Shown in pieces: positions 3,478 through 41,544 of a stretch of 64,000 nt of DNA. The DNA lies in assembly GCA_000165345.1 (NCBI GenBank), contig CM000436.1, positions 1,056,001-1,120,000 of the forward strand, read 5' to 3'. Under the pieces are notes generated by a model that was not told where the DNA came from, did not search any database, and worked only from the letters and a program-made list of their open reading frames with translations. Position 1 is the stretch's first letter, and each line of letters starts with the position of its first letter. The position numbers and the translations under genes were made by a program.

Positions 3478-4254
3478 GTGAAATTTTAAACAATTTTATT
3501 CTTATTATAATACTTTTCCAACTTAATTCATTCAATCAGATAAATCAATCATTTCATTCCTGTAATTAATTATTAATACTATATATATTCACTAAAACTG
3601 ATTAATTTTATTCTAAATCTAATATTTTCTTTTTCTTTCTGACTTATTTTAACTTCATTGTTTTGTAACTTCATTCCTAAATTTTCTCTTATTGGTATTA
3701 TTACTATTATCTTCCCACTTGCCGCCCATGCAGTTATTTTTCTTTTTTAATTCAATGTGGATAAAAATTACGTATACAACGGTAACCACGTAATTTTTAT
3801 AACATGTATATATGCATGCAATGCAAAAATGCATGGCAAGAGGGGGGAATGAGATGCCTGAAAAAATTAAAAGTGTGATTTTAAGGGGGGTGGAGAAGAA
3901 AAAATGATTAATTTGAGAAAATTTTATAAATGAAACGAAAGAATTAAAGAAAGTGAAAATAGAAGTCGAATTTAAAAGTAAAAAAAAAAAGTTGGTCAAT
4001 ACATGTGAATAAGTAAATATTTCAATTTATTACTGCGGTTATTGTCTAATAAGAAATTTTATTTGTATTAAACTTTCAACATAAAATAAAGTGGATATAT
4101 GCAAGTTGAAGAACAGAAAATAATAATATTACTTAAACAGAAAGAATTTTTCTAAAGTTAATTAATTTTTTAAAAAATCCATTCATAAACAAAGATTATC
4201 AAAATAAATTCTTAATTTATTAAAGTTCTTGTTTACGATAATCTAACATAAATA

Positions 4255-8394: not shown

Positions 8395-10431
8395 ATGAAG
8401 GATTTATTAGATTCAGATGGAGAATCTGGAAATCTCCATGATACCAATACTTTAAAGATTAATGAAGATTACAAAAGAAAATATGATGAAAGAAAGAGAA
8501 AAGAAGCTTTATCAAAAGCAAAAGAACTATTAAAAAATGATAGAGAAGGAGAAGATGATGATGAGAGCTATTCTGAGTCAGATTCATCAGATGAAGATGA
8601 GGATTCTGATGCAGAACTTTTGGACTTAAAGACTCAAAATAAAATACTTGAAACTTTGGATAAAATAAAAAAGAAGGATCCTAGCATTTATGATAACTCG
8701 CATGTAATATTTCCAGATTCATCGGATGAATCTGATGATTCTAATGAATCTGATATAAAATCAAGTAATTCTAATACCCAAAAAAATAGTAAACCAATGA
8801 CTTTTAAAGATTACGAAAGAGAGATTTTATTAAAATCTCAAAATGATGAAGAAGATAATGAAATAGTTAAAAAAGGAATATCTAAGAAATTAGGTTATGA
8901 TAAGGAACAAGATGAGCTAAAGAAAGCATTTCTTAAAGCAGCAGAAGGATTAGATGAAAGTGAAGACGAGTTATTTTCTGGAACTCTGATTAAGAAAGAT
9001 AAAAGTAAGGAAGAGCTTGAAGAAGAAGAAAGAAATTTTAAATCATTCCTTACACGTAATATAGAGGAAGGAGGAGATCCAATAGAATCTTTAAATAGAT
9101 ATTGGGGTCCTGAGGAAGATTTGGATGAAAATGAAAAGTTTTTAAGAAATTATATATTAAATCAAGAATGGAAAGAATCCAATAGTCAGAAAAGAATTAA
9201 TGATGAAAACTCATCAAGTTATACAATTCAGACAGAAATGGACGAAGAAGAAGATGAGAAACATTTGGAATTATCAAATGAATTTGAAGGTATATATAAT
9301 TTTAGATACGAAGAACCAGGAGCTAACCAACAGATTATGGGATACTCTAGAGATATATCATCCCTAAGAAGGCCAGATGAACGTAGAAAACTGAAAAGAA
9401 AAGAAAAAAAAGAGAGAAAAGCTGAGGAAAAGCTTAGAATGGAGGAGGAATTAAAGGTTTTAAAGAGTATGAAGAGGAAGGAAATTATTGAAAAGCTTAA
9501 AAAGATTCAAGAAGTTTCAGGAATTAGCTGTATTTCAGATGAAAAGTTGGATTTGGAAGGAGATTTTGATCCTGATAAACATGATAAATATATGGAGGAG
9601 CTCTTTGATGATGATTATAATGAAAAGAAGGAAGATCTTTCATTATGTGAGATTTTGGAAAATAATGATGAAGGATTGAATGAATTAAGTGATGGGAATA
9701 TAAAAAATGAGAAAGAGGCCAAAAAACATAAAAAGAAGCTTTTAATGAAAGAAAACCAATTAAATGACGAATCAGAAATAAAACCACCATCTACTTATGA
9801 AGATGATGACTATGTATGGTGGCAATGTGATGGTTGTTTGAAAGAGATTCTTCCAAATAAGAAAAAATTTGATTGTAAAGTTTGTGAGAACTTTACTCTT
9901 TGTAAGTCTTGTTGTAGAAATACCAACCACGAGCATCCTCTTGAAAAGAGTCGTGTACCAGAGCCAATTAATAAAGAATTTAATGATAATGAAGAAGCGG
10001 AAATTGATGAAATGACCAGTTCTAACAGGCTGAATTTGAGATATGGAGACAATGAAAAGATTAATAGTTTGTTGGATGAATATTATAGTCTCCATTTTGA
10101 AGATGTTTTAGACAATGGTAAGATGCCAGTTAGATTTAAGTATACAAATGTCGAAAAGAATGACTATGGACTTAGTGTTGAAGATATTTTATCAATGGAT
10201 GATAAAGCATTGAATCAACATATTTCTTTAAAGAAGCTGGCTCCATATAGGGTTGATAAGAAGAGAAAGTATTCACCACCAGTAAATACTTCAAATGAAG
10301 CAAAATCTTCGAATAATATGAACAAGAAGCATCATAATAAGGGTAATAAATTCAAACGAAGTTATTCAAATAATAAGAATTCATTAAATACATCCCATAT
10401 TAATAAGCATCGTCTTGAATCTTACTATTAA
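8395..10431 (+). CDS. KRI1: KRI1-like ribosome-biogenesis protein (678 aa) carrying a Cys-rich ZZ-type zinc-finger-like insertion
   Basis: N-terminal 'LKINEDYKRKYDE', acidic Ser/Asp runs and 'LETLDKIKKKDPSIYD' resemble the KRI1 N-domain. C-terminal 'VRFKYTNVEKNDYGLSVEDILSMDDKALNQHISLKKLAPYR' resembles the Kri1 C-domain. 'WWQCDGCLKEI...CKVCENFTLCKSCC...HEHP' lies at aa 469-509. Confidence 0.7.
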   Translation: MKDLLDSDGESGNLHDTNTLKINEDYKRKYDERKRKEALSKAKELLKNDREGEDDDESYSESDSSDEDEDSDAELLDLKTQNKILETLDKIKKKDPSIYDNSHVIFPDSSDESDDSNESDIKSSNSNTQKNSKPMTFKDYEREILLKSQNDEEDNEIVKKGISKKLGYDKEQDELKKAFLKAAEGLDESEDELFSGTLIKKDKSKEELEEEERNFKSFLTRNIEEGGDPIESLNRYWGPEEDLDENEKFLRNYILNQEWKESNSQKRINDENSSSYTIQTEMDEEEDEKHLELSNEFEGIYNFRYEEPGANQQIMGYSRDISSLRRPDERRKLKRKEKKERKAEEKLRMEEELKVLKSMKRKEIIEKLKKIQEVSGISCISDEKLDLEGDFDPDKHDKYMEELFDDDYNEKKEDLSLCEILENNDEGLNELSDGNIKNEKEAKKHKKKLLMKENQLNDESEIKPPSTYEDDDYVWWQCDGCLKEILPNKKKFDCKVCENFTLCKSCCRNTNHEHPLEKSRVPEPINKEFNDNEEAEIDEMTSSNRLNLRYGDNEKINSLLDEYYSLHFEDVLDNGKMPVRFKYTNVEKNDYGLSVEDILSMDDKALNQHISLKKLAPYRVDKKRKYSPPVNTSNEAKSSNNMNKKHHNKGNKFKRSYSNNKNSLNTSHINKHRLESYY

Positions 10432-10657
10432 TTTTATATGATTAAATTATAAGAATGGTTTGAATCTTGTTAATCATATTTTATTTGTCTAATATTGTAA
10501 AGATTTGATGAAATATTTACCATTCATATTCCTCATTATTAGTGTTTTTAAAGTTAATTTATAAGTATTATTTATATTTTAAAAAAAAACCAACTTGTTT
10601 CTTTTTAAATAAGTGTTATTTAATAATCAGTTAATACTTGTTTATTATTGACTAATA

Positions 10658-11740
10658 TTATACAACTTTTTCACCATTCACAGTAATTTGAGGATTAAAC
10701 CCAAGTGAATCTTTAACAACAACATGTTGGTTTCCTTTGGATTTCAACCAATTAACAACATTAGACTGTACATTTCCTGCCATTTGAATTTGTTTCCTTG
10801 CAATTTGTTCAATCCATCTTTAAATTTTAATAATTAGTAAGAAAATAAAATGATATAAACTTGAAATATAAATATACTACATATACTTACCTTAAATCTT
10901 TTGTAGTAAGTGCAGGTACTCCTAATGAAGAATCTGATAATCCAGTATTTTCTATAGTACCCATATTTTTTGAGAATGTAATTCCACTATTCTTGCAGAA
11001 TATCTGAGTAATTATCAAATAAGTTAATATGATAATTTTGTATAAATTTGAATTAATTCAAATAAATAAAAAAAACTTACAGCTTCTGTCAACTTATTCA
11101 TCATTTCGTTTCTCTCTTCGTCAGACTTTGCACACATAACTACAGGTGATCCATCGAAATACATTCTGAAACATTTTCTGCTATTTTGAACAGATTCCAA
11201 AGGAACCTCAATTTTATTAAGTGAGAAACTTCTTACAAGGCTTTCTGGATTTTTTAGGTCTGTCATAAATAATAAATCATCCTTAGTAATTTTTACTCCA
11301 AGAAGATCGACATCGAAAATATTTCTTGGATCCAAAGCTAAAGCTAATTCACCTGAAATCATTACAGAACAGACAGGATCTCTTGGTGAATCAACTACTG
11401 GCATACTAGTAACAACATCTCTTTGCTTTAATTTATTATTTGTAGCATCATTCATTGCTTTTTGGTAAACTGAAACAGCTGATGAAACTGCTTCACTATA
11501 AAGCTTTTCAGAATCTTTCTGGCTTATCTGGGATTTACCTTCCCCAATTACTGATACTGGTTCGACATTTGCACCGATTATTTTTCTTGCAGTTTGTATT
11601 AAAGTTGTGATTGTACCAGGTAAAAATTGTGGCTCTAATAAACCAAAATCTGATGTTGAACGGGTTAATCTTGCATGAGCATATTGGCTCAATCCTGCTA
11701 TTGATAGTAAATTAATCAAAAAGAAAATTCTCATTTTCAT
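10658..11740 (-). CDS. Secreted hypothetical protein, paralog A (signal peptide; 3 exons on minus strand: 11081-11740, 10891-11003, 10658-10817)
   Basis: N-terminal 'MKMRIFFLINLLSIAGLSQYAHA' is signal-peptide-like. Track ORF 11024-11740 reads through a GTAAGT donor at 11080; introns are 11004-11080 and 10818-10890. The spliced frame continues '...NKLTEA|IFCKNSGITF...KDLR|WIEQIARKQ...NGEKVV*' to a TAA at 10658-10660. About 18 of 50 residues match the product of gene 12398-13742. Confidence 0.65.
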
Positions 11741-12397
11741 TATTTCTTTTTTTTTCTAGATTAAACTATATCAAATACTCTCTTCTTTGATTAATAATTA
11801 ATTTTTTTTCTCTGTAGAATATTATTATTATTCTACAATTCCATCCGAATTAATTAATCACAATTTTTTTTTCTTTAGTTATGTGTTATTTTAATTAAAT
11901 TGCATTATAATTAATTTATCGACATTTTTTAATGATTTTTTGGTGCATGTAATTGATGACGTCATTTTTTTTTTTTAAATTGAATTACGTCATTTTATCC
12001 ACATAAATATATACCGGTATTACATACATGCAAAAAATTATTATTCATAATACAATTTTTGCGCATGCAAAAAAAAAATGCAAGTTTGCTAATTTAGTCC
12101 ACATGAAATTGCATGCAAGTTTTTTAAGCTTAAAGAGATAAATAGAAAGAATTAAAAAAAAAATAATTGTTTTTGCATGTATATGCAAAGCCGGTATTCA
12201 ATAAAAGTCAGAAAATGAAAATTCATGCATAAATACATGTAAAAAAAAAATACATTTATGCATACAAGAAAGGAGTAATTCGTGATAATCTAAATTAAAT
12301 CAAAACAAGGGTATTTTCAAAATAATCTTCTTGTTATTTAATATTTAAAAAAATTATCAAATAAATAAAAAAGGTATTTAATTTTGAAAGAAGAATT

Positions 12398-13742
12398 ATG
12401 GTGAAATTATCAAATTTAAAAAAGGCTATTTTACTTTTGGGTTGCATTGGAATGAGTAATGCCTTGACAGTTTTTCATTTAACCAATCCATTCGATTTAT
12501 TACAAGGATTGAGTCATGTTAAGCTTGAGAGAACTACAGAATTACCAGTTTCTCATAAAACTTTGAGGTTTTTACAAGAAAAAATTAAGTCATTTTCTGT
12601 TGATGGGGATAATGTAGCAAAAGAAGCTATTCAAGGTATTAGTTCAACAACAGGAGTCAACTTCAAAACTACTCCTTTATCACAAGAAGCTTTTAAATTA
12701 CAAAGCAATACATTATTTGCTGAAGCTGCTGAAAAGAGAAAGGTTGCTAAATATTTACAAGAGCAAAGTGGAATGACTGAAACTGAACTCACACAGGCAG
12801 AAATTGATCCAAAGAAGAATCCAGAAAAAGCTGCTGCTATCACAAATATGAAACGTGCTAAGGTACTTCTTGCTCAGGCTTATATTTTAGAAGGTAAGGT
12901 TTTATATTTAAACAAAAAATTAATAAGGTGAATAGAAGAAATCAAATAATGTATTTATATTTCTATTCCTCTTTATTGACAAATAAATCAGAAAGTTATT
13001 AACTTAATCTTTTCACCCTAATTTAAATTATAATTAATATAGAGGAAGCTAAAAGAATGCAATTAGCTTCCACTAGAAGTGGAAACAACGAAAGCTTTAA
13101 ATGCGATATTCTCAAGATTGGCCCTCTTGCATTTGCTCCAAATAGTGAAGAAATTACTGATATTATGGATGGATCTCTTGGATTCTTGAATGGTAATATG
13201 TTATCAATTTACTACAACTCAGTAAGTTTATTCTTGATTTCTTCTTTTCTATTCAATATTTAATTCATCATTATCATTCTTGAAATTTAAAGATTCCAAA
13301 AGCATCATTTTCATTAGAAAGTATTGAACTACCAGTTCATAATGTTGACGCTGCTCCAGGATGTATTGGCTTTAAATACCATGGAACAGACCAAATTATT
13401 TGTGCTACAGGAAAAGATAGTCAATCTGCATGGATTAATGCAATCACTGAAGCATGGTTTTGCAGAAACTTAGGTTTAGCAGGAACTTTACCATCAATTT
13501 CTGATAATCAGAGTAAGTTTACAAAAAAAAACCTTAATAATTTGAACCTTTATATTCACCTATTATTATTAATAGAAGAAGAAGAACAAGAAGAAGGTGA
13601 GACTGAAGAAAATGAGGAAAATAGTGACAAGAAACAAAAAGAAAACAAAAAGAAAAAGAAATCATCAAGACTAGTCAGATCTTCAGTAAAAACATTCACT
13701 GTCGAATTAGAAGATGGAAAACCAAAAATTACTCAAAACTAA
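12398..13742 (+). CDS. Secreted hypothetical protein, paralog B (signal peptide; 4 exons: 12398-12892, 13043-13220, 13293-13512, 13576-13742)
   Basis: Track ORFs 12398-12931, 13057-13263 and 13542-13742 link through GTAAGG/GTAAGT donors and TAG/AAG acceptors with consistent phases. The product contains 'SFSLESIELPVHNV...CIGFKYHG...IICATGKDSQSAWINAITEAWFCRNLG', matching 'SFSLNKIEVPLESV...CFRMYFDG...VMCAKSDEERNEMMNKLTEAIFCKNSG' in gene 10658-11740. It has an acidic/basic C-terminal tail. Confidence 0.65.
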
Positions 13743-13954
13743 GAGGGAGGGAAGAAAGAAAAAAACGAGATGAGCATTTACATTAATACCAAACAATAAA
13801 TAATACAAATTTTTTTGCATGTAAATGAATCTATAGTTTATTATTATAATTATTAATGATACAAACAGAAATTAACACTATTATATGATTAACAAATAAT
13901 TAATTTGTATCTTCTGTAATATGATCAAAACAAACTATTTTTTACTAATACAAC

Positions 13955-14581
13955 TTATTCATCATTTGATCCTATCTTCATGTTTGCAAGTTGTTGTAAA
14001 GCAAGTGTATCGGAAATAGACATGCTACCGAATCTAACAGGTGCAAAAGATATTGATGATTCTCTTTGAATTGGGCTAGAAACCTCGAAACTTGCATTAA
14101 AATCTTCATTTGGCTCATCATAGTGCTCAGTTTTTGACTTAATGGGAATATTAGTCTCGTCTGAATCACTCTTATCTTTATGTTTGAGACCTCTTTTAAA
14201 CTTCGCAACCGCTTCAAATTGAGCTCTTACATGTTGTAATGTTACACGTCTTCTAGATACCATTGCAGCTAATCTTGCTCTTTGTTTATAAGCATCCACT
14301 ACCTCCTCTTTAGTGTGTGCTAGTGATTGCTGCCTAACTAAATAAGAACGCTCTATGGCTCCTTTCAAACCACCTGAATTGCTAAAACTGATATTTCTTA
14401 GCAATTCACGAGTATTTTGATTAATTATTTGTCTTGTTTCCTCTGGTAACTGTGTTTCATCAAACTCTATATTACTCTCAAACGGAATCAACTTCTTATG
14501 AATCTCTTCATCAAGCTGAGAATCCTCAGCTTCTTCTGAAGCCATCAGCTGTTCTCCATATTCGTTTACTCCATTATCCAT
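13955..14581 (-). CDS. Hypothetical acidic protein (208 aa), function not recognised
   Basis: Clean single ORF in a coding-like AT-skewed context, not low-complexity, with a basic central segment 'AYKQRARLAAMVSRRRVTLQHVRAQFEAVAKFKRG'. I cannot name a family from memory. Confidence 0.5.
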   Translation of the reverse strand: MDNGVNEYGEQLMASEEAEDSQLDEEIHKKLIPFESNIEFDETQLPEETRQIINQNTRELLRNISFSNSGGLKGAIERSYLVRQQSLAHTKEEVVDAYKQRARLAAMVSRRRVTLQHVRAQFEAVAKFKRGLKHKDKSDSDETNIPIKSKTEHYDEPNEDFNASFEVSSPIQRESSISFAPVRFGSMSISDTLALQQLANMKIGSNDE

Positions 14582-15007
14582 TTAATTTAATTCCCTAATT
14601 TTTTTTTCCCAAAATTGGTCTTTCTGAATTGTTTCTTTACAATTTCCCCCTTGAATCTACTCCCTTTATTATCCTAAGGTCTTAAATTCGTTGTCAGTAT
14701 TTTTTTTCTATTCAAACAATAATCTATTCAATAACGACTTCTTCGCACAATTTTACAACCTAAAGTCAATTCATGACCCGACTACTCCATAAACACACTT
14801 CCCAAGTCGCACTTAGACATGGGCACAAACAGACCTACAGGCAGAGGAGATAAAGTACCTCAGTAACCGCAATATCATGGCGGCACCCGGATATGAAAGC
14901 CGCCAAAATGGCGGCGGGCGAATTCTGCCGCCGCCTTTCGTAGACGGCAGAACCTACAAGCTTTAAAGGAGAGACAGAGACAAAAAGGAAACATCGGGCC
15001 ACTCCCT

Positions 15008-15292
15008 TTTCCTTCGGCCGTTCAGAATCATCCACACCGCTCGGAGTTCCAACCCAAGAAACTCCGCTGGGTCATCAATGCCGTGCAAGCATACATAAGC
15101 GCATTATCTGGACCAACTTAAACTCCAAAGGAGATAAGAGGAACCAGATAAGAGCAGAGTAGAAACAGGCTACGCTTCCCGTTTCCGGCGGGATGGATAA
15201 CTCATCGTCACGGACAGAGGTGTTGTCAAGAGCTGTAGCCCAATACGATCGGATTCACTATAGAAATGATCCCGTTCGAGTACAGTCGACAT
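15008..15292 (-). ncRNA. U3: U3 small nucleolar RNA (box C/D class), about 285 nt
   Basis: Minus-strand RNA begins 'GUCGACUGUACUCGAACGGGAUCAUUUCUAUAGUGAAUCCG'. This contains the U3 5' hinge/box A signature 'GGGAUCAUUUCUAUAGUG' (plus 15256-15273 reverse-complemented). Box C'-like 'CGAUGAG' is at plus 15201-15207, box B-like 'GGAAGCGUAGCC' at 15168-15179, box C 'UGAUGA' at 15072-15077 and box D 'CUGA' at 15022-15025, followed by 'ACGGCC' able to pair with 'CCGU' 5' of box C'. GC content is near 50%, well above the surrounding 25-30%. Confidence 0.8.
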
Positions 15293-15376
15293 TGGACCGT
15301 TGAATTGGAAAAAGGTATAATCCGGTACTGCACGTTTTGGTGATGGTTCTCGAAGAGAATTATACGTATTGGACCG
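15291..15376 (-). promoter_or_regulatory. Candidate U3 promoter: TATA-like element at about -30 and two CGGTCCAAT (CCAAT-type) direct repeats at about -5 and -80
   Basis: 'attggaccg' occurs twice (15291-15299 and 15368-15376, 77 bp apart). 'ggtataatccggtac' (15314-15328) reads ATTATA on the U3 strand about 30 nt upstream of the inferred GUCGAC 5' end. Confidence 0.45.
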
Positions 15377-15638
15377 CATTATGTTAGAAGAAAAGTAATG
15401 TAATGTCTTTGACAAATTTCTTTAAGTTGAAAAGCTTATTGATTAGCAACAGGACTGCATGTAGTTAGTAAATTTCATAAATCATAGAATAAAAGGGGAT
15501 AAAATAGAAGGAATAGGAAATATTATGTCATCAATTTAAGTTAGAATAAGGTAGAAATTAGAAATAACAAATGTTGATTACTTATTATAGACTATATCTA
15601 AATGCAGTAGAGATATTTAGAACTAAATAGGCTGAGTT

Positions 15639-16544
15639 TTACTCCTTCTTCTTAATAGGTCTATAAACCCCAATAACTACAGCATGATCTCTATGATAAG
15701 GTTCAAGAGTAAGCTGTTCCTTTGGTTTACATTTTTCGGCTCTTAGTTTATCTATTTCAGATGCAAAAACAGCCTCTGGTTTTGCAGTAGAATCTACGCA
15801 ACTTGCCTTAATAGATATTATAAAGTATCCATTATTCTTAAGGAAAAGATGAGCATTTAAAGCTACTATACGAGCTTGGTCAGGCTGGGCAACATCAGAA
15901 AAGATAACATCGACCATTGGAACAAGCATTCTATACTTTTGAGGAGTTCTTGCATCCTCTACAATAGGAACAATATTCTGACGTCTTTTAGCCATATCTG
16001 TCAAATCTCTTCCAGATCTGTGACTAAACTCTACAGCATAAACACTACCTTCCGGGCCGACCATATCTGATACATGAGAAACTGTTGTTCCATTAGCTGC
16101 TCCCAAGTATAATACCTTTGCTCCTGGTTTAATTGGCATATTAGCAACACCTCCAATAATAGTTGCTCCCAACTTCGATCTAAATGGATTCCAAACACGG
16201 TATTCAATCTTTTCATTAGTCTCAGGATCTGTTGTCTCTACTCTTTTTTCACCATAAATTGAAACACCTGGTACCATATTTCTGGTTACTAATGCATCAC
16301 TCTTACCTTTTGCCATAAAAACACCTTCATGTCTGTGAGGAACAATTATTACTTTTGACCCTCCCTTCATTCCTCCACCTCCTCCTCTACCTCCTTTACC
16401 TCCACCTCTTCCTCTACCTCCACCTGGACTTCTTCCTCCTCCACCTCGGCCTCCACCCGGACTTCTACCTCCACCTCCTCTTCCTCCACCTCTCCCTCCT
16501 CCACCTCGGCCTCTTCCTCCAAATGGACTGCCTCTTGAACTCAT
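15639..16544 (-). CDS. FBL: Fibrillarin (rRNA 2'-O-methyltransferase, Nop1), 301 aa with an N-terminal GAR (RGG) domain
   Basis: N-terminal '[18 protein letters not shown]...' is followed by '[39 protein letters not shown]...[47 protein letters not shown]', the canonical fibrillarin fold. Confidence 0.95.
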
Positions 16545-16672
16545 ATTTATTCTCTACTCTTGGCTTTTTTTTTCACTATTATTCTATCCTTGAGTTTTCT
16601 TTGTCAATACCTGACTTTTTCAATTTCCCTTTATCGCATCCCTTTTTGACTATATATAAATACTTATCCCGT

Positions 16673-16689
16673 TTTGGCGGCACGTGGCT
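16673..16689 (-). promoter_or_regulatory. E2F-like site fused to a CACGTG box (TTTTGGCGGCACGTGGC) about 130 bp upstream of the fibrillarin ATG
   Basis: Direct reading of 16673-16689. The same GC-rich motif class recurs in many intergenic regions of this window. Confidence 0.4.
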
Positions 16690-17313
16690 GTCTCCAGTAT
16701 ATTAATATTTACTAAGGGGAGAAAAAAAAATGGAATTTTACATCACTTTAAATTCCTATCTTTATTTTTATTATCCAGATCTCTTTTTATTTAGGCCAAG
16801 TCCTTCGCTTTCTCCTACCTTTTCCTTCCTTTTATCTCTTCTCCTTCCTTTTTATTCAACAAATCTCATTTCTTCAATATTACGCTGATCTCAACCTTTT
16901 TGGCGCCAATAACTTATGTCATAATTTACTTGCCAACTTTAATCAATTCAAAATTCTTCTGAATTTATTGCTTTGAAAAATTATTAGTAAATACTCTTCT
17001 AACCTAAACATTTATTGTTGAAAACTTCTTGCTATCTCCCACTAACACTTCTATCTTACTTTCTCTCATTCGTTTTCTACATACTCATTTTCCTAGACTT
17101 GAAATTTTAAGATACAAATTTAGGCGGGAATTCTTCTTATTAACTACTTGTCAAAAGTTCAACAGTGAAGAAGAGTAAAATTTTAAGGGAGAAGGAGAGA
17201 AAAGGATTAAGTTTTAAATTTAGGAAGGCTAATATAGTCCAAAGACTTGATATCTAATCTAAAATCCCCTTTTTTTTACATACTAAAAGGTTAAAGATTG
17301 ATTCTTTTCATTT

Positions 17314-19611
17314 ATGGCTTCAATTTTAAGTCAAGAAGCTGAGAAGCGGCAAGATTCTCATCCTGTGACCCTTCAATTGTCAAATCGTCTAGTCAATTTC
17401 GTTTCTGGAGGATTTTTGGCCAACAAAACAGGTATAGAGTCTTCTTCTTACGTTTCAGATAATTCCCAGATCTCAGATAAAACACAGAAACATATGGACA
17501 AATTAAAAGAAAAAGAACAAATTGAAAATAATGTTCCATTAGCAAAGCCAGAATACTATTATTTCCCTCCAGAATTACTCACTGATGCAAGAGATTTTCT
17601 TGAACCAAAAGAAATCTCTCACTTCAGACCATATGGTAGAGGATTAGCTAATCCTGGTTGGAATACATGTTATTTTAATTCTATTTTACAAGCATTAACT
17701 TATGCACCTTATCTTTCAATTGATTGCTTAAGGAGGAATCACCAAAAGATTTGTAAACATATGAAAGACCATTTGGTTTGTATTATGTGTATGTTTGAAG
17801 ATCATGTTAATATTATGTTGGATAATACATCCAAATCTAATACAAAAAATGACCAACCAGTAGTTTCTAGTTTTATCAAATGTGCTCAAAAATTAATATG
17901 GAAAAGATTTAGAATTGGAATGATGCATGATGCACAAGAATTTCTAAGGTATTTCTTAGAAGCTTTACATAAATCTTGTTTACCTAAGAATTTACAAACT
18001 GATCAAACTTTTAGGAAAATACATCCTATTGCAGCTTCAACAACTTATATTGGTCAACTATTTTGTGGATTCTTTCTTTCTAGGATTGTATGTCATAATT
18101 GTCAATATACTTCCAATACATATGACCCATTTATGGATGTACCACTTGATATTATGGGGGTATCGAATTTAGAAAATGCTCTCAAATTATTTACTAAAAT
18201 TGAATATCTTAAAGGTGAAAATAGATATATGTGTCCAAAATGTAATCAGAGATCTGATGCTTCAAAACAACTTCTAATTGAGAAACTTCCTCCACTATTA
18301 ACAATTCAACTTAAGAGATTTAGTTATGTAGGACATGGAAGTAGAAAACCTAACAAAGCTATCAATTTTTCAGATGTTTTGGATTTACAACCATATATGT
18401 CTTCTAAGACTTATTCTGAATCTAAAGTATCTTCATCTAAATCTGAATCCTCTTATATTTACAAATTATGGGCTGTAGTATGTCATTCTGGTAATACTTT
18501 ATCTTGTGGTCATTATTATACCCATGCTAAGAGTATTGACAACAAATGGTATTGCTTTAATGATGATTACGTTAAACCAACAAGAATAGAAAATGTATTA
18601 AATGAGAATCATAAGGCTTATTTGTTGTTTTACTATAGGAGTGATTTTAATAAATATGACTTACTTAAGGATTCTGGTGTCTCCATAGAGTCTTTAGGGA
18701 AATCTCAGATCATTACTCCTTTAGCTCCTGAAATATCATTTATAAATCTTCAACTTAAATCAAACTCAAAATCCTCTATAAATGGTAAAAATAATAATTC
18801 TAAAGAATCATCAAATTCTGAATCAAATTTGAATGAATTTTTGGATCAATTATTAACAAATAAGTCTAAAGGAGAAAGAGATTTAGCCCAAAATCAAGAT
18901 CAAGATCCAAATTTACAATTTTATCAGAACCAACAAAATAATAACAATATTAGACTAGTTTTGAATCCAATAATAAATACGGATGTAAATAATGAAAAAT
19001 TAGATTCAAAGATTTCTATAATATCTAAAAATGAGCAAACAGAAAAGATTATTAAGGCTAAGATTTGTAATTTCAAGCTTAGATCCTTATTACTATGCGA
19101 TAATTGGATTACTAGATCCAAATCAAGAAGGAATTTAGCAACCATTTTTTATCTTAAGAAATTAAAGAAACTTGGATTATCAATGAACTACTTTATTAAA
19201 TCAAAATCAGGAAATTGTTCAAATGGAAAAGTTTTGATTAGTAATATTAACAAGAGTCAAATAGACACTTGGGAAGATCTTAATTTATCTAATGATACTA
19301 TTACAAGCTTGGAACAAGCTCAAAAATCTCTTCTTGCTCGTTCAAATATTAGATCAGATTATGATAAGGAATATGATAAAGGTAAAGTTAAAAAACCTCT
19401 AAGACAGGCTATTCTAGCTTCTACAAGTTCCAATAATAATAATGAAAAGAATACTAATAGTAAATTCCAAGCTAAAAAATCAGCATTTATGGAAAAGAGC
19501 AATATAAAAGATTTGGATACCTTAAGTACTAGTGAACTATTTGATATTGCTTTTAAGAATAAAGGTAACTTAAAGAACAAAAATAAAAGAAAAAATGTTA
19601 GAATTAGATAA
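17314..19611 (+). CDS. Ubiquitin carboxyl-terminal hydrolase (USP/UBP family deubiquitinase), 765 aa
   Basis: Cys box 'GLANPGWNTCYFNSILQAL', His box 'YKLWAVVCHSGNTLSCGHYYTH' and 'AYLLFYYR' are present. The C-terminal half is a low-complexity N/S/K-rich tail. Confidence 0.85.
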   Translation: MASILSQEAEKRQDSHPVTLQLSNRLVNFVSGGFLANKTGIESSSYVSDNSQISDKTQKHMDKLKEKEQIENNVPLAKPEYYYFPPELLTDARDFLEPKEISHFRPYGRGLANPGWNTCYFNSILQALTYAPYLSIDCLRRNHQKICKHMKDHLVCIMCMFEDHVNIMLDNTSKSNTKNDQPVVSSFIKCAQKLIWKRFRIGMMHDAQEFLRYFLEALHKSCLPKNLQTDQTFRKIHPIAASTTYIGQLFCGFFLSRIVCHNCQYTSNTYDPFMDVPLDIMGVSNLENALKLFTKIEYLKGENRYMCPKCNQRSDASKQLLIEKLPPLLTIQLKRFSYVGHGSRKPNKAINFSDVLDLQPYMSSKTYSESKVSSSKSESSYIYKLWAVVCHSGNTLSCGHYYTHAKSIDNKWYCFNDDYVKPTRIENVLNENHKAYLLFYYRSDFNKYDLLKDSGVSIESLGKSQIITPLAPEISFINLQLKSNSKSSINGKNNNSKESSNSESNLNEFLDQLLTNKSKGERDLAQNQDQDPNLQFYQNQQNNNNIRLVLNPIINTDVNNEKLDSKISIISKNEQTEKIIKAKICNFKLRSLLLCDNWITRSKSRRNLATIFYLKKLKKLGLSMNYFIKSKSGNCSNGKVLISNINKSQIDTWEDLNLSNDTITSLEQAQKSLLARSNIRSDYDKEYDKGKVKKPLRQAILASTSSNNNNEKNTNSKFQAKKSAFMEKSNIKDLDTLSTSELFDIAFKNKGNLKNKNKRKNVRIR

Positions 19612-20079
19612 TGATTATTACTAGGTAAATATACTATTTATTTTTGTTTACTTTTATCTTGTATTTATAATGCATTTTTGTCTCTGTAATAACATTTTTA
19701 ATATATTTTCATCACTAAGAGTACTTAAAGAGAAATGTGATAATGAAAGACATTAAAGAAAAATGGACAGTTTGGTATCGTATAGTAAATACAGGTACCG
19801 TATAGTATATAATGGAAGAGACTGGGGTAGAAGAGGAAAAGAATTCAGATCTGGAGATAAGATCTTAAAATGGAATCATCTAATCAATTTCAAGTAAAAT
19901 AAGTCTCAAATAAGTACTATTACGTCTAGATAAATCTTACAATTTCCTTGTCTCTAGTAATGTGTAATTAAGTAGATAATAGATGTTTACATTTCCCCTT
20001 AACTTTCTTTTCCTTGTAATATTAATTAAGAAAAGAGAGAAATTAGACAAATGCTTTTGGTCTTTTAATTCTAATTAGC

Positions 20080-20856
20080 CTAACACATTCTATCAATAAG
20101 TTTGTTGATCAAATTTTCTCTGTTACCGCAATCTCCACCTCTGGCTTCAGTAAATCTGGTAGATTTACGAACAAATCCACCATTTGGAGAGGAAAGCTTG
20201 AATGGCCATAATAAAGAAGTAACAGCCTTAAATTGCTCTCCACAAAAGAATAATTCACGAACCATACCTTCAATACCATAAACACCTTTAGAAGCAAGTT
20301 TCTTTTGAATAATAGAATTATCTTGAATACGTATTCTCTGATAACTACCTCTCTTTCCAACCTTTAAGTATCCTCTCTTATAAAGTAACTTACGAATCAT
20401 AGAAATAGATGGGTATCCATAAGCAACAAATGGATCAATAACCTTGAGCATTTCAATAGTTGCTTTATTTAAAGGTAAGAATACACCATTATTAATTTGA
20501 CGTAATCTAAATAACTGGAAGATTTTTCTAACTTTTGGAGATAATTTATTAATACCTTTAAGACGTATAACAAAAACAACCTTTGGTTCAGCTGGACGAT
20601 ATAATCCTCCATTTTGTTTGGCTTGTCTCTTTAAATCGATAATAGATTTAACATGTTCTTTGTATTGTTTTTGTAATTTCAATGCCTCGATCTTAGCCTT
20701 CTTACGTAAATCATTTAATTTGACTCTATCAGACTTGATCTTGGATTGAAAATCGGAGAATATCTTCATATTACGCTCCAATTTTAGTTTCTTTGACTCA
20801 CTTGGAGGAACCTTCTTTGTTACGAATCTTGACATATTTTCTAATTTATTTACCAC
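20080..20856 (-). CDS. RPL7: 60S ribosomal protein L7 (uL30)
   Basis: 'VVFVIRLKGINKLSPKVRKIFQLFRLRQINNGVFLPLNKATIEMLKVIDPFVAYGYPS...LIDRM' matches RPL7. The true start may instead be the second Met (MSRFVTKK, at 20835). Confidence 0.9.
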   Translation of the reverse strand: MVNKLENMSRFVTKKVPPSESKKLKLERNMKIFSDFQSKIKSDRVKLNDLRKKAKIEALKLQKQYKEHVKSIIDLKRQAKQNGGLYRPAEPKVVFVIRLKGINKLSPKVRKIFQLFRLRQINNGVFLPLNKATIEMLKVIDPFVAYGYPSISMIRKLLYKRGYLKVGKRGSYQRIRIQDNSIIQKKLASKGVYGIEGMVRELFFCGEQFKAVTSLLWPFKLSSPNGGFVRKSTRFTEARGGDCGNRENLINKLIDRMC

Positions 20857-21021
20857 AACAGTTAGAGAAAAAAGAATAAATGTACTAAATTGTTGGGATT
20901 TATAACTTGAATTTGGTAACTTCTTCCTTATTCAAGAATTAAAGTCAATTTTGCAGCAATTTTATTATTGAAATTAATTTTGAATTAGACAAGACAGTCG
21001 TAATTTTAAAGTTTATTATTT

Positions 21022-21079
<58 letters not shown>

Positions 21080-22014
21080 TTATTTAATTTTAAACAAATA
21101 TTATTATTATGATTAATATTATTAAATTATGAATATGAATATTAATTAATTTAATTTAAATTAACTTTTTTTAATATTTTACTTTTAATACAAATTATAT
21201 TATTCTTTTTGATTAATAAAAATAATTCATAACTTATTACTTTTGTCATTTTTAAACCTTTATTAATTATTCATTATATTAACTAATATTTCCGTCTCAA
21301 ACAGGCGGGAAGACGAGTGCGTCTTGTCTCCGGAAAATATATATATTATGTAAAGATGATTTATGGCTTAAAGTATCTAGATCTTGCAAGTATTTTTTGA
21401 ATTAATGTTTTTTTTATTTTTTTAAAGTATGATTTAATAAAATTAATATTAGTAAGATTGATATGTAATGAACCATATAATTATTAGTAATAGAAAGAGT
21501 AAAATAGTATTGGTATAAATAAATTAGTGGATCTGATGAATTTAGCATAAGAGTGTGACAATAGGAGCATGTAAAATAAAGACTGGATATTTAAGTACAG
21601 AAAAATAATGTAGTGAGACTAAAAGTATTATTCATCTGATAAAAAAATAAAACTAATCTATGATAAGATAATCAAATGGTTTTAATTTTTCGTCAAGAAA
21701 GTTACTGTTTTCATGTATTATTAATATTACCAGAAATAAAAGTAATAATAATAAACAAAAGATCATATAATTAAAGAAAAAAATTGTGAATTGATAGAAT
21801 CTCTAGATTTTTTTTCCTTCATTTCTTTCTTTCTATTTCTTTTTTCTTTTCTTTGTTTTCTTCTTCTGGAATGATTAATAATTTCATTTAAAACCTTTTA
21901 TTAGAGATAACTATTAGCAATTAATTAGTAATAAGTTAAGGCTAAAAGTTGAAATTAATAATTTAAATAAAGAAAAAAAGGAAAAATGTTATGAGATTGA
22001 ATCATTTTCAATGT

Positions 22015-22407
22015 TTAAAAGAAGAAACCAAGGATTTTACCACCAGTGTGTTTTCTTCTTGCCTCTTCTTGGTCCATAATACCATAAGATGTTGACAAAA
22101 CAATGTAACCAAATTGTCTGGATGGAAGTAAATCGGTACTAATTTGCTCAATATCAGATAAAGGAACATCATAACGTGGGGAGATGACTCCACATTTGTT
22201 GAGACGTCCAAGTAATTCAATGCAAATTTTTCCAGCTCTACGATCATCAACAACTTCGAATTCTCCAATATAACCACGTCTCTGCATACATTGTAAGAAT
22301 TTGATAATAACCTTTGAAGAAGGACGAATTAAAACTTGACGACGTCCCATCTTCTCAGCATTTAAAATAGCCTTTAAACAATCACTTAAAACTGAAACGC
22401 GAACCAT
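22015..22407 (-). CDS. RPS15A: 40S ribosomal protein S15a (uS8; S22 in yeast), 130 aa
   Basis: '[81 protein letters not shown]...GGKILGFFF' matches RPS15A near-collinearly. The overlapping track ORF 22008-22277 is out of frame and spurious. Confidence 0.92.
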
Positions 22408-22818
22408 TTTTTCTGTATTTTTGCTTCTTTAATATAGATATAACACAAATTTCTAATTATGTGGTAACCTGGAGTTGTCCTTTTTTATATATAAATATCT
22501 ATAAATTTTAAACGACTAATTAAAATTTAATTAGGTCAAATTACGCCTTTCAAAAAAAAAGAATTCCTTTTTTTCTTTGTTTAAATTTAATTGATGTTTA
22601 ATACGTATTAATTATTAAAGTAATTTCATTTACCGCTATTAATAATTTAATTTTTATTAATTGATAAAATTAATAACTCATTACATTTATTATATAAATA
22701 AATATTAGTCAATTATTATTTACAATATTTTATTTTCTTTATGCATTTTTTTTTTTTTTAAAGCATTTAATTATAATTTTATTACTATTAATAGAGACGC
22801 CGTCGTCCTAAGTTCACG

Positions 22819-22831
22819 TTTGGGCGCCAAC
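22819..22831. promoter_or_regulatory. E2F-like site TTTGGGCGCCAAC in the RPS15A / NOP14-like divergent intergenic region, with a CCCGCC element at 22916-22923
   Basis: Direct reading. Same motif class as 6509-6554, 8117-8130, 16897-16910, 40917-40930 and 55331-55356. Confidence 0.4.
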
Positions 22832-23191
22832 TTTTGTTACCTATTAATATTTTATGAAGAAAAAAAATTTTTTTTTTAATCTAAAAATAGGTAACTCGGT
22901 ATAACAGTAATTTATAGCCCGCCTTTTTTTTAAAAAAAAGTTTCACTATTAAAGAATTTTAGATAAGAGTCAAAAATTACAAGGGAATTTTAAGTGAGAA
23001 GAAATAAAAAAGCAGAGGGGGAAAATTGTTTAAGGTCATTAATTCAATTGAAATTATTGAATATGTATTAAAGTTAAAGTGGAAATATTAATTGATTCGA
23101 ATATTATCTAGTAATATAATTTAATAATTATTTGTAAATATCTTAAAATTTTGCATATTTAGATGAAATAAGTTCCAAATTAATGTGAAAG

Positions 23192-26100
23192 ATGGCTAAA
23201 AATAATGGAATAAAAGATCTGAGTTCAGCTTTTAATGTAGTAAAGTATAAAAAGAAAGATCCTCATTTGAAAGTAATAAAGAGTAGAAATTCTAGTAAAA
23301 TAGAAAATTCATTAGATAAGAGAAAAGATAAATTGGGATTTAACGATCGTGATTTCCTTGAAAGAAAGAGGTCTATACTTAAAGAGTTATATTCAGAGGG
23401 AAGGAAGAGTGAATTTAATGATGAGAGAGAGAAGTTTGCTTTAAGAAAAGATTCTATTGGAGATAATTATCAGACTTTAATAGCTACTAAGCAATTAAAG
23501 AAGAAAGTTAAGAAGAGAAAGAATAACTTTAATTTGGACGAAGAAGAAGATGATGATAATGATTATAGAGGACATTCTGGTGAAAATTTAAATAATACTA
23601 GTACTAATGATTTAGAATTCACTCATCAAGGAAAATCTATTTCAGCCTTGGATGATAAGGCTATTCGTAAATATGATGGTAATATAGATGAGGATAATGA
23701 TTTCGATGATAATGATTATACTGGTAGCCGTAAAGGAGATAGTATTTTAGATGAGAAGAATATGCCAGGTTTTTTCTTTGGACAAGGAAATTCAGATGGA
23801 ACTTCTACTAAGTCTAGACAGGAGATATTTAAAGAAATTATGCAAAAGAGTAAGCTTGCAAAGATGGAGATGAAGAGACATAGAGAAAGTCTAGAGGAGG
23901 AGTTGGTTAATTTAGATAGTGCATTTTCTCAAGTTCAATCAATGCTTAGTTATAAACAGTCAAGAAAAGACAGAGTCAATTCTTTACTGAATAATATTAA
24001 TTCTAATTCTTCTGTTACTGATAATAATGGTAATGATAATAATATTCAGTCATCTGACAAGAATATTGAAGAATTGGATGAATATGAACAACTCAGAAAT
24101 CTTCTAAAGTTTGATACAAGAACTGGTGTTTCTGATAGAATTAAAACTGATGAAGAAATTGCAAAACTTAATGCTGAAAAACTTGAGAGGCTTGAAAAGG
24201 AGAGAAAAGAAAGAATGAATCTTGATGATTCCAATATTGACATTGACTTGAGTACTGAATCGGAAAATGAGTACTTTAAGGACGACTTTGATGATGAAGA
24301 TGGTGAAGAAGAGGACGGCTTTGAAGATGAAGAAGAAGATGAAGAAGAGGAAGAAGAAGAGGAAGAAGAAGAGGAGGAGGAAGAGGAGGAAGAAGAGGAG
24401 GAAGAAGAGGAGGAAGAAGAGGAAGATGAGGGACGGAAAGTAGAAAAGGACTGCTTTGAAGAGGAAGAAGAAGATGGGGAGGGGGAAGAAGAGGACGGTG
24501 AGGATGATGAGGAGAGAGTGAAACCCGCATCTAAAGGATTCATTGATTTCGAATTAAATGAAATTGATGAAATTGATTGGTTGGTGAACGATGAATCTGA
24601 ACCAAATTTACCATTTAGTGTTAATTTGAAGAAAATCTTGAAGGAATATAGTTTGAAGGGACTTATGGAATTTATGAATGGATTTTCTCCAAAATCTCAA
24701 TGGAAATTTATTTGCAGATTTAGATCATGCTTTAATAAGGGAGATACTGCAATGTTGAATGACTTAAAACTTCTTATTGGTTTTCTTATTAAATATCCAT
24801 TAAATTGTCTAAGAACAGCAGAATCAGATTCTGAAAAGAAGAATATTTTTCAATTTATTATTAATTATCTTAAGCTTATGAGTAGTCATTTATTATTTAT
24901 GGCAGAAACTGATCCAAAAGAATGCCTTATCATTTTCACTTACTTTACATTTGAAATTTGTCATACAACATTTCCAAGTGTTTATCACAAATATAAAAAA
25001 GTTGAAAAGTTTTTAAATGATAATCTTTTAAATGTAGAAAATGAAAACTATTATACTGAAATATTAGAAGAATGTCCATCTTTATACCAACTTTCTGAAG
25101 ATATATATGAACTGACTTTAGAACATATTGTGATATGTAGAATGATGTTTATATTATTCCCAGTTACTGATGCTCAACATCCAATATTAACTCCAGTTAT
25201 TATATGCTTGGAACAATGGGCTCACAGATGGAGTCAAGTTGGGAAATCTTTACTAAACACTAACACACCAGATCAAGATAGTGAAGAGTTTAAATACAAC
25301 CAAATAAGGCTTGTTGGGGGTAGTAACCCAAATATTAGTTGCATGATTGGAGTAATCTGTCTATTGGAGATATCTAGTATTGGTTATGCAAATAGTAAAT
25401 CAAATAATAATGGTAATGAATTGCTTGAAAGATTTAGTATTGGTTACTTTACTTTATCATTAAGTTGCCTTAAATGGCTGTTATTGTCTGATCCTGATAA
25501 TAATATTTCCATTGAAGAAAAAAGAATTTCATTATCAATAGGAATTCTTAAATCTTTAATTAGAGTAATTTCTGCTTTTAAAGATTTACAAGGGTTCCAT
25601 GCTATTATTATTCATCTTATCCGTGAAAATATCAAACAAATTAATGAATCATTAATGAAGATGGATAATTGTAAAGTATTGTTAAATTTGGTTTCTGAAA
25701 TTGAATCGATCTCTACAGAAATTGCCAATAGACCTCAAAAACCAATTAGTCTTTGTCCAAGACAAACTCCAACAATTAGATCTTTGATTCCCAAAATTGA
25801 TGATCCATCTGTTCCATTTGCTGCAAAAGCTATGCTTAGAGCCAAACATGGTCCCAAAGAATCCCAATATGAACATGAAAAGAAACATTATTTGTCTAGA
25901 TTGAAAAAAGAAGTCAATACTGCTAGAAGACAAGCCAGTAGACAACTTAGAAAAGATTCACAAGTGATTGCAAGTGCATGGCATGAAAATAGAACGGAAA
26001 AATCCAATAAACAAAATGCCAAGTATAATTCCTTCATGAAGATGTTAGAAGACGACCAAGCTGAATATAAGAGGATGAAGACTACAGGTGGAACCATGGA

Positions 26101-38663: not shown

Positions 38664-38736
38664 GGGGAACTAGCTCAGATGGTAGAGCGCTCGCTTAGCA
38701 TGCGAGAGGTGATCGGATCGATGCCGGTGTTCTCCA
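38664..38736 (+). tRNA. tRNA-Ala: tRNA-Ala (anticodon AGC), 73 nt, followed by a T5 Pol III terminator at 38738-38742
   Basis: GGGGAAC/GUUCUCC acceptor stem with the G3:U70 alanine identity pair and discriminator A73. D-arm is GCUC-AGAUGGUA-GAGC. Anticodon stem-loop is CUCGC-UUAGCAU-GCGAG, giving anticodon AGC. A T-arm is present and the gene is followed by 'cttttt'. Confidence 0.9.

Positions 38737-41354: not shown

Positions 41355-41544
<190 letters not shown>

Follow-up and report, generated by a model that had tools for sequence, protein, structure and literature searches.

Introduction

U3 small nucleolar RNA (snoRNA) forms a particle with Snu13, Nop56, Nop58, fibrillarin, and Rrp9, and pairs with 5′ ETS and 18S regions of the pre-rRNA within the small-subunit processome, through its hinge and A boxes. 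This pairing permits the early cleavages that free 18S rRNA. The Rfam family RF01848 (ACEA_U3, clan CL00100), which represents the U3 snoRNA of alveolates and other protists, reportedly originates from the work of Marz and Stadler in 2009. Yeast snR17 genes contain an intron, and some vertebrate box C/D snoRNAs sit in introns of NOP56 and NOP58, genes for their own partner proteins.

The U3 RNA of Cryptosporidium parvum is already catalogued. Li et al. 2022 placed it among 55 Rfam benchmark ncRNAs of this species, and it is present in both the CryptoDB and the Rfam listings (PMC9465071). All benchmark families except tRNA have one copy each, and U3 was detected by sRNA-seq, so that it is expressed as a small RNA (PMC9465071). 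In Euglena gracilis, U3 genes are reportedly multi-copy and linked to U5 (PMC2784804).

In this study, we analyzed the U3 locus in a 64,000-nt stretch of the C. parvum genome (the window). The gene is the catalogued C. parvum member of RF01848, with the box order and fold of that family; it is single copy, and its expression has been reported (PMC9465071). It shares the 5′ end GUCGAC...GGAUCAUUUCUAUAG and boxes C′, B, C, and D with yeast and vertebrate U3 (snR17A/B; RF00012), and it is probably, like these, an independent snRNA-type gene. Unlike yeast snR17, it has no intron, the model match being contiguous, and its candidate promoter elements are genus-specific, unlike those of yeast and vertebrate U3. 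As with the snoRNAs hosted by NOP56 and NOP58, a box C/D RNA lies beside the gene for a core box C/D protein, but C. parvum U3 is found past the fibrillarin ORF and has its own conserved upstream blocks, whereas the NOP56/NOP58 snoRNAs are intronic. With Euglena gracilis, the likeness is that U3 recurrently occurs together with a second gene involved in RNA metabolism; Euglena reportedly combines multi-copy U3 with a small RNA gene, and Cryptosporidium combines single-copy U3 with a protein gene (PMC2784804).

Results

Identification and ends of the U3 gene

A covariance-model search matched a 274-nt minus-strand feature (15290..15017; Table 1) to RF01848 with 126.5 bits (E = 6e-25), where the gathering score is 55 bits. 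The match is contiguous and spans model positions 1–209 of 209. The search itself reported 15289..15016, and the block conserved among nine species has G15290 as its first base and 15017 as its last. A sequence-only reading of this DNA had proposed a U3 snoRNA gene here, and the Infernal check with Rfam U3 models was clearly positive. It had also described the gene as lying in a GC-rich stretch. The enrichment is real (50% GC in the U3 interval against 29.3% in the whole window), but the island is larger than was stated, extending from approximately 14790 to 15290.

We compared C. parvum, chipmunk genotype I, C. canis, C. ubiquitum, C. felis, C. ryanae, C. bovis, C. andersoni, and C. serpentis. 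U3 occupies the identical slot, between fibrillarin and the gene for a 208-aa protein and on the same strand, in the eight further species. The eight orthologous ACEA_U3 matches score 106–135 bits, and the length of U3 ranges from 230 to 274 nt over the species. In the nine-species alignment, the 5′ domain and the boxes are invariant and the 3′ domain has compensatory changes. RNAalifold gave a consensus of 65 pairs at −58.2 kcal/mol, in which 11 pairs show double compensatory changes. The predicted stems, with the 11 compensatory pairs, are a terminal CCGU/ACGG stem and a long 3′-domain stem. The fold of the 3′ domain is maintained over nine species through compensatory changes. Neither the window nor the other loci compared contain rDNA. 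Because of the Rfam match, the eight orthologous matches in the same slot, the compensatory changes, and the published small-RNA sequencing (PMC9465071), the feature is a genuine single-copy U3 snoRNA gene of C. parvum. The gene is already known and not new; the sequence-only reading had described it as hidden under ORFs, but to the field it is a catalogued C. parvum ncRNA (PMC9465071).

On the minus strand, GTCGAC at 15290–15285 opens the gene, and GGGATCATTTCTATAGTG is located at 15273–15256. Both parts of the 5′ signature that had been described are present, but they are not directly consecutive: the second starts 11 nt past GTCGAC. Boxes C′, B, C, and D follow in the canonical order, as had been proposed, and all were located on the minus strand between 15209 and 15022, with stems predicted to join C′ with D and B with C. 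Conservation ceases directly past GGAUGAUUCUGAACGGC at the 3′ end of U3. Relative to the RF01848 consensus, the C. parvum U3 carries an expansion of approximately 65 nt between boxes B and C and differs in nothing else in kind. C. andersoni and C. serpentis have a shorter expansion or none at all, and the gastric species show a gap of approximately 45 columns at this place in the alignment.

Table 1 Features of the U3–fibrillarin locus in window coordinates.
Feature	Position	Strand	Remarks
Downstream neighbor, 208-aa Cryptosporidium-only protein	13955–14581	−	Orthologs only in Cryptosporidium
GC-rich tail: pyrimidine tract (GAGA-like on the other strand), then GGCGG/CCGCC cluster	14790–15010		Densest in window
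U3 small nucleolar RNA gene	15017–15290	−	274 nt, 50% GC; full RF01848 model; nine-species block
Box D CUGA (CTGA), then terminal-stem strand ACGG	15022–15025	−	GGAUGAUUCUGAACGGC invariant in 9/9 species
Box C UGAUGA (TGATGA)	15072–15077	−	Invariant in 9/9 species
Lineage-variable expansion between boxes B and C	15095–15165	−	Insert states relative to the Rfam model
Box B-like, DNA AGCGTAGCC, RNA AGCGUAGCC	15168–15176	−	Aligned to box B region of the model
Box C′ region, DNA GACGATGAG, RNA GACGAUGAG	15201–15209	−	GAUGAG invariant
U3 5′ domain with GAC, A′, and A boxes, GUCGACUGUACUCGAACGGGAUCAUUUCUAUAGUG	15256–15290	−	Invariant in 9/9 species except one G/A column
Proximal CGGTCCAAT, −9..−1	15291–15299	−	Exact duplicate of distal copy; not conserved
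TATA-like ATTATAC, −31..−25	15315–15321	−	Common to 4/9 species
Candidate proximal promoter element GAGAACCATCA, −61..−51	15341–15351	−	Sole upstream block kept in 9/9 species
Distal CGGTCCAAT, −86..−78, inside partly conserved block GCGGYCCAATACGTMTAAT	15368–15376	−	Intestinal clade
Fibrillarin gene, 301 aa, N-terminal Gly/Arg-rich domain	15639–16544	−	PF01269, E = 5.9e-105
E2F-type site TTTGGCGGC	16673–16681	+	Approximately 130 nt upstream of fibrillarin ATG

Open reading frames over U3

Two minus-strand ORFs of the mechanical ORF list, 14835–15035 (66 codons) and 15170–15415 (81 codons), overlap the gene, and the view that they encode real small proteins can practically be dismissed. Apart from the open frames themselves, this view could draw on the public assembly of C. 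felis, in which a 70-aa gene is called over U3 on the opposite strand. A Pfam search returned no match for either ORF. Where the 81-codon ORF overlaps the 5′ domain of U3 (approximately 15290–15200), almost every nucleotide is fixed in the nine species, a pattern that is not codon-like, and this ORF also extends through the U3 promoter. The accessions of the flanking proteins (EAK89571 and EAK89572) are consecutive, so that no protein is annotated between them. Stop counts in three frames of the orthologous U3 regions do not bear on the conservation of the ORFs, because the near-invariant U3 5′ domain leaves one frame open in most species. The ORFs are spurious, in agreement with the sequence-only reading.

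Fibrillarin and the downstream neighbor

The fibrillarin domain PF01269 was found at residues 68–295 of the upstream ORF product with 349.9 bits (gathering score 27), and residues 1–60 are RGG-rich. The product is identical to C. parvum EAK89572.1/CPATCC_004293. The 5′ end of U3 is located 349 nt downstream of the end of the ORF (16544..15639, stop codon counted), on the same strand. The proposed adjacency to fibrillarin and the distance of 350 bp from its stop codon therefore stand; the orientation was misjudged, as it is the start of U3 that faces fibrillarin. The 208-aa neighbor on the other side is identical to EAK89571.1/CPATCC_004292 and had no match in a Pfam search.

Upstream elements and transcription of U3

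Upstream conservation consists of discrete blocks at about −58..−50 (all nine species), −40, −30, and −85..−65, and the 25 nt immediately before U3 +1 are not conserved. AACCRTCAY, at about −58..−50, forms the core of the block common to all nine species and recurs at the matching place 5′ of U3 in L004, L006, L009, and L010 as well as in the C. parvum copies L001–L003. We regard this block as a candidate promoter element. AACCRTCAY is absent from the earlier description of the promoter, which had named a TATA-like box at about −30 and a duplicated CGGTCCAAT. The box is present, but its conservation is limited: it is kept as GGATTATA only in C. parvum, chipmunk genotype I, C. canis, and C. ubiquitum, whereas the gastric species read GGATAAGT or CAGATAAGT at this place, and C. 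felis, C. ryanae, and C. bovis differ. The duplication is also real. Exactly two occurrences of CGGTCCAAT exist in the window, where shuffles expect 0.07 and 0/100 reach two. The relevance of the proximal copy did not hold up, since unrelated sequence takes its place in all eight other species, even the closest. The block around the distal copy, GCGGYCCAATACGTMTAAT, is recognizable in the intestinal clade and degenerate elsewhere.

Because conservation starts exactly at G15290 and only discrete conserved blocks lie upstream, U3 would be transcribed independently, from its own snRNA-type promoter. A highly improbable alternative is that U3 is cut from a longer transcript, either by read-through from fibrillarin or as a dicistron with the downstream mRNA, which would resemble host-gene snoRNAs or the polycistronic transcription described for C. 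parvum. Fibrillarin, U3, and the 208-aa gene are co-oriented, the short spacers between them measuring 349 and 434 nt, and polycistronic mRNAs occur in C. parvum (bioRxiv 10.1101/2025.01.17.633476). Li et al. 2022 obtained a small-RNA assembly in which U3 was fused with the mRNA downstream of it, but the authors ascribed the fusion to overlapping transcripts and split it at the coverage minimum (PMC9465071). The 'CPATCC_0004520' of Li et al. 2022 may be the 208-aa gene. Because of this fusion, some read-through or overlap is real and at least part of the tail downstream of U3 is transcribed (PMC9465071). Against the longer-transcript reading, conservation sets in exactly at the canonical U3 5′ end, preceded by position-specific promoter-like blocks. 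In addition, the fibrillarin–U3 spacer varies from 245 to 660 nt among species and is conserved only over its last ~90 nt. To our knowledge, U3 has its own transcription unit and carries a cap wherever it has been studied, which also counts against a longer precursor.

Transcription by Pol III, as suggested by the TATA-like box and a T-run, was not adopted, as the 3′ T-runs are not conserved among species. The C. parvum U3 is followed by a T5 run, but chipmunk genotype I, C. ubiquitum, and C. andersoni have no run of T4 or longer close to the 3′ end of the gene. A plant-like Pol III U3 gene is therefore disfavored for C. parvum.

The GC-rich tail downstream of U3

The tail at 14790–15010 has a GC content of 52–54%. 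Six GGCGG/CCGCC matches lie at 14879–14931, including TTTGGCGGC at 14907–14899, and the E2F-type sites of the tail are located 300–350 nt upstream of the ATG of the 208-aa gene at 14581. TTTGGCGGS occurs five times in the window against 0.13 expected, always in intergenic positions. The E2F-type motif family, including TTTGGCGGG and TTGSCGCC, was defined previously (PMC3734150), and E2F-type motifs are the dominant promoter motif in Cryptosporidium (PMC3734150; bioRxiv 10.1101/2025.01.17.633476). The sequence motifs in the tail are of this promoter type, being intergenic and upstream of a start codon. We do not count the tail as part of U3 but read it as a putative E2F/GAGA-type promoter, together with the 5′ leader, of the protein gene that follows.

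The high GC content of the tail would also suit a second structured ncRNA or a functional part of pre-U3, either a 3′ extension or a processing hairpin. In single-sequence folds, strong hairpins appear in the tail of every species, with the U3-sense strand more stable than the antisense in 8/9, and transcription covers at least part of the tail (PMC9465071). A fold common to the species is lacking, however: RNAalifold of the tail from five species placed 11 pairs in an alignment of 270 columns, at −5.6 kcal/mol. A permissive Rfam search of the tail yielded a chance-level match alone (Xoo2, E = 1). The similarity of the tail between species consists of short E2F-type promoter words (GGCGG, TTTGGCGG, GGCGCC) in shuffled order, and the entire gap from U3 to the ATG is merely 117–129 nt in the gastric species. 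With no common fold and no Rfam match, a second ncRNA in 14790–15010 is very improbable and was rejected in favor of the E2F/GAGA-type promoter. Another GC island of the window, at 41.3–41.6 kb, was considered as a hidden ncRNA and rejected as a (TGAGCC)n microsatellite.

Conservation of the U3–fibrillarin adjacency

U3 adjoins fibrillarin in 9/9 Cryptosporidium species compared, and the order UCH, fibrillarin, U3, 208-aa gene ... Kri1 is identical in all Cryptosporidium loci compared. In Toxoplasma gondii and Plasmodium malariae, no U3 was found within 10 kb of the fibrillarin gene, nor was one found in the 15.1 kb around fibrillarin on a shorter contig of a third relative. The U3–fibrillarin linkage is kept only where the entire gene order is kept. 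Since the genus shares the entire gene order, conservation of the pair alone is no sign of selection. The adjacency is best read as inherited gene order in a very compact and highly collinear genome. We found no mention of a U3–fibrillarin linkage in the literature.

The sequence-only reading had suggested that the linkage may reflect co-regulation. For this, the sequence offers no support: U3 has its own upstream blocks, and no motif shared between these and the fibrillarin promoter was found. The linkage also tracks general synteny and was not found at three outgroup loci.

A broader form of the idea is that the adjacency is functional, with U3, fibrillarin, Kri1, RPL7, RPS15a, and Nop14 forming a co-regulated neighborhood, for example one open-chromatin or E2F-driven domain, in which selection holds U3 beside the gene for its partner protein. 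Kri1, fibrillarin, RPL7, RPS15a, and Nop14 all lie at 8.4–26.2 kb in the window, that is, four ribosome-related genes besides fibrillarin within 18 kb, and none of the ten ORFs scanned at 33–59 kb is ribosome-related. A rough binomial estimate for the cluster (5/11 genes at a 7% background) gives P ~5e-4, and over ~350 such windows genome-wide the cluster is expected by chance ~0.2 times; the test is post hoc and not compelling. For a single gene, the rough estimate of landing beside fibrillarin by chance is about 2 in 3,900 genes (~5e-4), so that pure chance is not a comfortable explanation of the adjacency. In Toxoplasma, fibrillarin is located 3 kb from the gene for Mpp10, another U3 snoRNP protein; U3 itself was not found near fibrillarin at the loci examined in Toxoplasma, Plasmodium, and the third relative. 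The same E2F-type 9-mer, TTTGGCGGC, is present 5′ of fibrillarin and shortly past the end of U3, but almost every intergenic region of the window has E2F-type sites, so a shared one is expected, and the site is absent from the conserved upstream blocks of U3. All flanking genes are collinear in the genus, so the conservation of the pair in all nine species is not specific. On balance, a functional adjacency appears unlikely.

Discussion

We propose that the locus contains a single-copy, independent U3 gene, that its adjacency to fibrillarin is inherited gene order, and that the next gene has its promoter and leader in the stretch downstream of U3. We assign this joint reading a probability of roughly 0.85. 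By comparison, we hold it unlikely that U3 and fibrillarin are the core of a selected 18-kb neighborhood of Kri1, U3, fibrillarin, RPL7, RPS15a, and Nop14. The routes of coupling in such a neighborhood would be shared chromatin or E2F control, or read-through that ties U3 to its neighbors.

The comparison adds precise ends to the known U3 gene and bears on annotation. The mechanical ORF calls over 14835–15415 do not represent proteins, and a gene is called on top of U3 in at least one public Cryptosporidium assembly. The candidate promoter element found throughout the genus could aid the search for other Cryptosporidium snRNA-type genes.

The adjacency of U3 and fibrillarin is genus-wide, but the fibrillarin loci sampled from other apicomplexans did not show it. 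If the neighborhood were selected, it would couple the output of a snoRNA to that of its partner proteins, in a genome where transcription factors are very few. If the adjacency is functional, it would be a small example of ribosome-biogenesis coordination based on gene order in a minimal eukaryotic genome.

Identity of the U3 gene

A sequence-only reading of the region had proposed a U3 snoRNA gene adjoining the fibrillarin gene, and this identification was correct. An Infernal search with Rfam models, suggested in the same reading, gave a match to RF01848 (ACEA_U3) on the minus strand at 15289..15016, which covered 209/209 model positions (126.5 bits; gathering score, 55; E 6e-25). All of the U3 landmarks it had named are present on that strand (table below). 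The GC content of the U3 interval is 50%, compared with 29.3% for the window. A permissive Rfam search of 14000-16000 returned only chance-level matches beyond U3, and, apart from U3, the window contains a single RNA gene at Rfam level, a tRNA-Ala (AGC) at 38664-38737 (+).

Coordinates of U3 elements and of protein genes around U3 (window positions)
Feature	Position	Strand	Remark
Kri1	8395-10431	+	ribosome-related neighbour of U3
box D CTGA	15025-15022	-	U3
box C TGATGA	15077-15072	-	U3
box B-like word	15176-15168	-	U3
box C' region	15209-15201	-	U3
GGGATCATTTCTATAGTG	15273-15256	-	U3 5' domain
GTCGAC	15290-15285	-	U3 5' end
fibrillarin	16544..15639	-	PF01269, E 5.9e-105
RPL7	20856-20080	-	ribosome-related neighbour of U3
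RPS15a/uS8	22407-22015	-	ribosome-related neighbour of U3
Nop14	23192-26194	+	ribosome-related neighbour of U3

The gene is an ordinary U3 that has already been catalogued. In a scan of C. parvum IOWA-ATCC with Rfam models, Li et al. 2022 (Microb Genom, PMC9465071) counted U3 among 55 benchmark ncRNAs; three C/D snoRNAs, including U3, are present in CryptoDB and Rfam, non-tRNA ncRNA families have one copy each, and the benchmark genes were recovered from sporozoite sRNA-seq. ACEA_U3 is also among the conserved elements of an alveolate-wide study (PMC5028923).

The fibrillarin encoded in the window is identical to C. parvum Iowa II EAK89572.1 (corresponding to CPATCC_004293), and the 208-aa protein encoded downstream of U3 is identical to EAK89571.1 (CPATCC_004292). 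These accessions are consecutive; therefore, no protein is annotated over U3 in the Iowa II record. Pfam searches with the ORFs covering the U3 region (14835-15035 and 15170-15415) gave no match in either. The C. felis assembly GCA_014529505.1 contains a call for a 70-aa gene (3433-3645, -, of the orthologous locus L007) that overlaps U3 (3513-3775, +) on the opposite strand; this protein annotation is very probably spurious.

Conservation across Cryptosporidium

Homologues of the 208-aa protein led to eight further orthologous loci, from chipmunk genotype I, C. canis, C. ubiquitum, C. felis, C. ryanae, C. bovis, C. serpentis, and C. andersoni. Each of the eight has one ACEA_U3 match (106-135 bits), on the same strand and between fibrillarin and the 208-aa gene. 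In the nine-way alignment (A1), conservation starts exactly at G15290 and stops at 15017, and the U3 5' domain and all boxes are invariant. Between boxes B and C, an expansion of the stem (about 15095-15165; A1 columns 150-205) is variable and is missing or short in the two gastric species, so that U3 length ranges from 230-233 nt in C. andersoni and C. serpentis to 255-274 nt in intestinal Cryptosporidium. RNAalifold predicted 65 pairs (-58.2 kcal/mol) from this alignment; compensatory double changes affect 11 of these pairs, ten of them in the 3' domain. The U3 locus is thus a functional RNA under structural constraint, and its reading as a pseudogene is rejected.

Sequences upstream of U3

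The duplicated CGGTCCAAT and the TATA-like box of the sequence-only reading both exist. CGGTCCAAT occurs twice in the window (-9..-1 and -86..-78 from the U3 start; 0.07 copies expected). Each of the eight other species has unrelated sequence in place of the proximal copy. The distal copy sits in a block, GCGGYCCAATACGTMTAAT, that can be made out chiefly in the intestinal clade. At -30 lies the TATA-like GGATTATA, which only four of the nine species have. The last 25 nt upstream of the U3 start show no conservation across species. The sole block kept in all nine is GAGAACCATCA at about -61..-51 (gastric version, AAAACCGTCAT), downstream of which CGTG lies near -40. The position and conservation of the GAGAACCATCA block fit a proximal element of an snRNA-type promoter, a role suggested by sequence comparison. 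T-runs 3' of U3 are not conserved, a point against a Pol III gene of the plant type.

The GC-rich tail downstream of U3

The GC-rich island reaches as far as about 14790, some 220 nt beyond the 3' end of U3. A second RNA in this tail was considered and rejected: there is no Rfam match, and five species lack a common fold (-5.6 kcal/mol, 11 pairs). Recurrent across species are the short words GGCGG, TTTGGCGG, and GGCGCC, 3' of a pyrimidine tract. GGCGG/CCGCC words occur in nearly every intergenic region of the window, and their densest cluster is in the tail (six matches at 14879-14931). TTTGGCGGS has five copies (0.13 expected), all intergenic, one of them located about 130 nt before the start codon of fibrillarin. 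The tail words match the E2F-type motifs TTTGGCGGGAAV and DTTGSCGCCH; E2F-type motifs and GAGA-like tracts are reported to be the most abundant C. parvum upstream motifs (PMC3734150; bioRxiv 10.1101/2025.01.17.633476). Given these words and the lack of an Rfam match or common fold, the tail is best read as the 208-aa gene's putative promoter and leader. Li et al. reported a U3 small-RNA assembly fused to a downstream mRNA, which fits the short distance from U3 to the next promoter; we infer that this mRNA is that of the 208-aa gene.

A pyrimidine-rich tract follows the U3 3' end on the U3-sense strand in all nine species (window 14960-15010; first 20-60 nt in the orthologous loci L004-L011), conserved in composition and not in sequence. 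On the opposite strand it forms a purine tract of GAGA-like type, which is a promoter motif known from C. parvum. The tract may have a role in U3 3'-end formation.

Other features of the window

Another 50% GC island, at 41359-41543 between two minus-strand ORFs, was rejected as an ncRNA because it consists of a nearly perfect hexanucleotide microsatellite, (TGAGCC) x 30.8 with 98% matches, which could serve as a polymorphic typing marker. GC-rich 42-84-nt tandem repeats occupy 51539-51981 within ORF 50380-52020 (+), which has no Pfam match; both strands carry long open reading frames there. Sec23/Sec24 domains are split over two adjacent ORFs, 46950-48053 and 48089-49636 (+), the first carrying the zinc finger plus the beginning of the trunk and the second the remaining trunk onward, which suggests a single gene broken by a short intron or frame change.

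Linkage of U3 and fibrillarin

The two genes are on the same strand, and 349 nt separate the end of the fibrillarin ORF (stop codon included) from U3. The gap of about 350 bp proposed earlier is therefore accurate, but it is the 5' end of U3, not the 3' end, that faces fibrillarin. The linkage is genus-wide, being found in 9/9 Cryptosporidium species. The order UCH, fibrillarin, U3, 208-aa gene ... Kri1 is conserved as a whole in the genus; therefore, conservation of the pair is no evidence of selection. Toxoplasma gondii and Plasmodium malariae have no U3 within 10 kb of fibrillarin, nor was one found in the 15.1 kb around fibrillarin on a 19.6-kb contig of a third relative (fibrillarin 80% identical). 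The T. gondii locus (L012 10001-17156) has the gene for Mpp10 (PF04006), a U3 snoRNP protein, 3 kb from fibrillarin. The conserved U3 upstream blocks and the fibrillarin promoter have nothing in common.

The 18 kb around U3 (8395-26194) contain five ribosome-related protein genes, for Kri1, fibrillarin, RPL7, RPS15a, and Nop14, and none was found among ten ORFs scanned at 33-59 kb. A rough binomial estimate (5/11 genes, 7% background) puts the probability at about 5e-4 per window. Since about 0.2 such windows are expected genome-wide, the cluster is a lead rather than a result, of borderline post hoc significance.

No mention of U3-fibrillarin adjacency was found in the literature searched, including PMC9465071 (zero occurrences of 'fibrillarin') and PMC5028923. 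By rough estimate, a given gene would flank fibrillarin by chance in about 2 in 3,900 cases, and any one of the ~70 small-subunit-processome proteins in about 4%. The low chance of U3-fibrillarin adjacency is a suggestive hint, but post hoc. Co-regulation, as the sequence-only reading had proposed, may lie behind this linkage.
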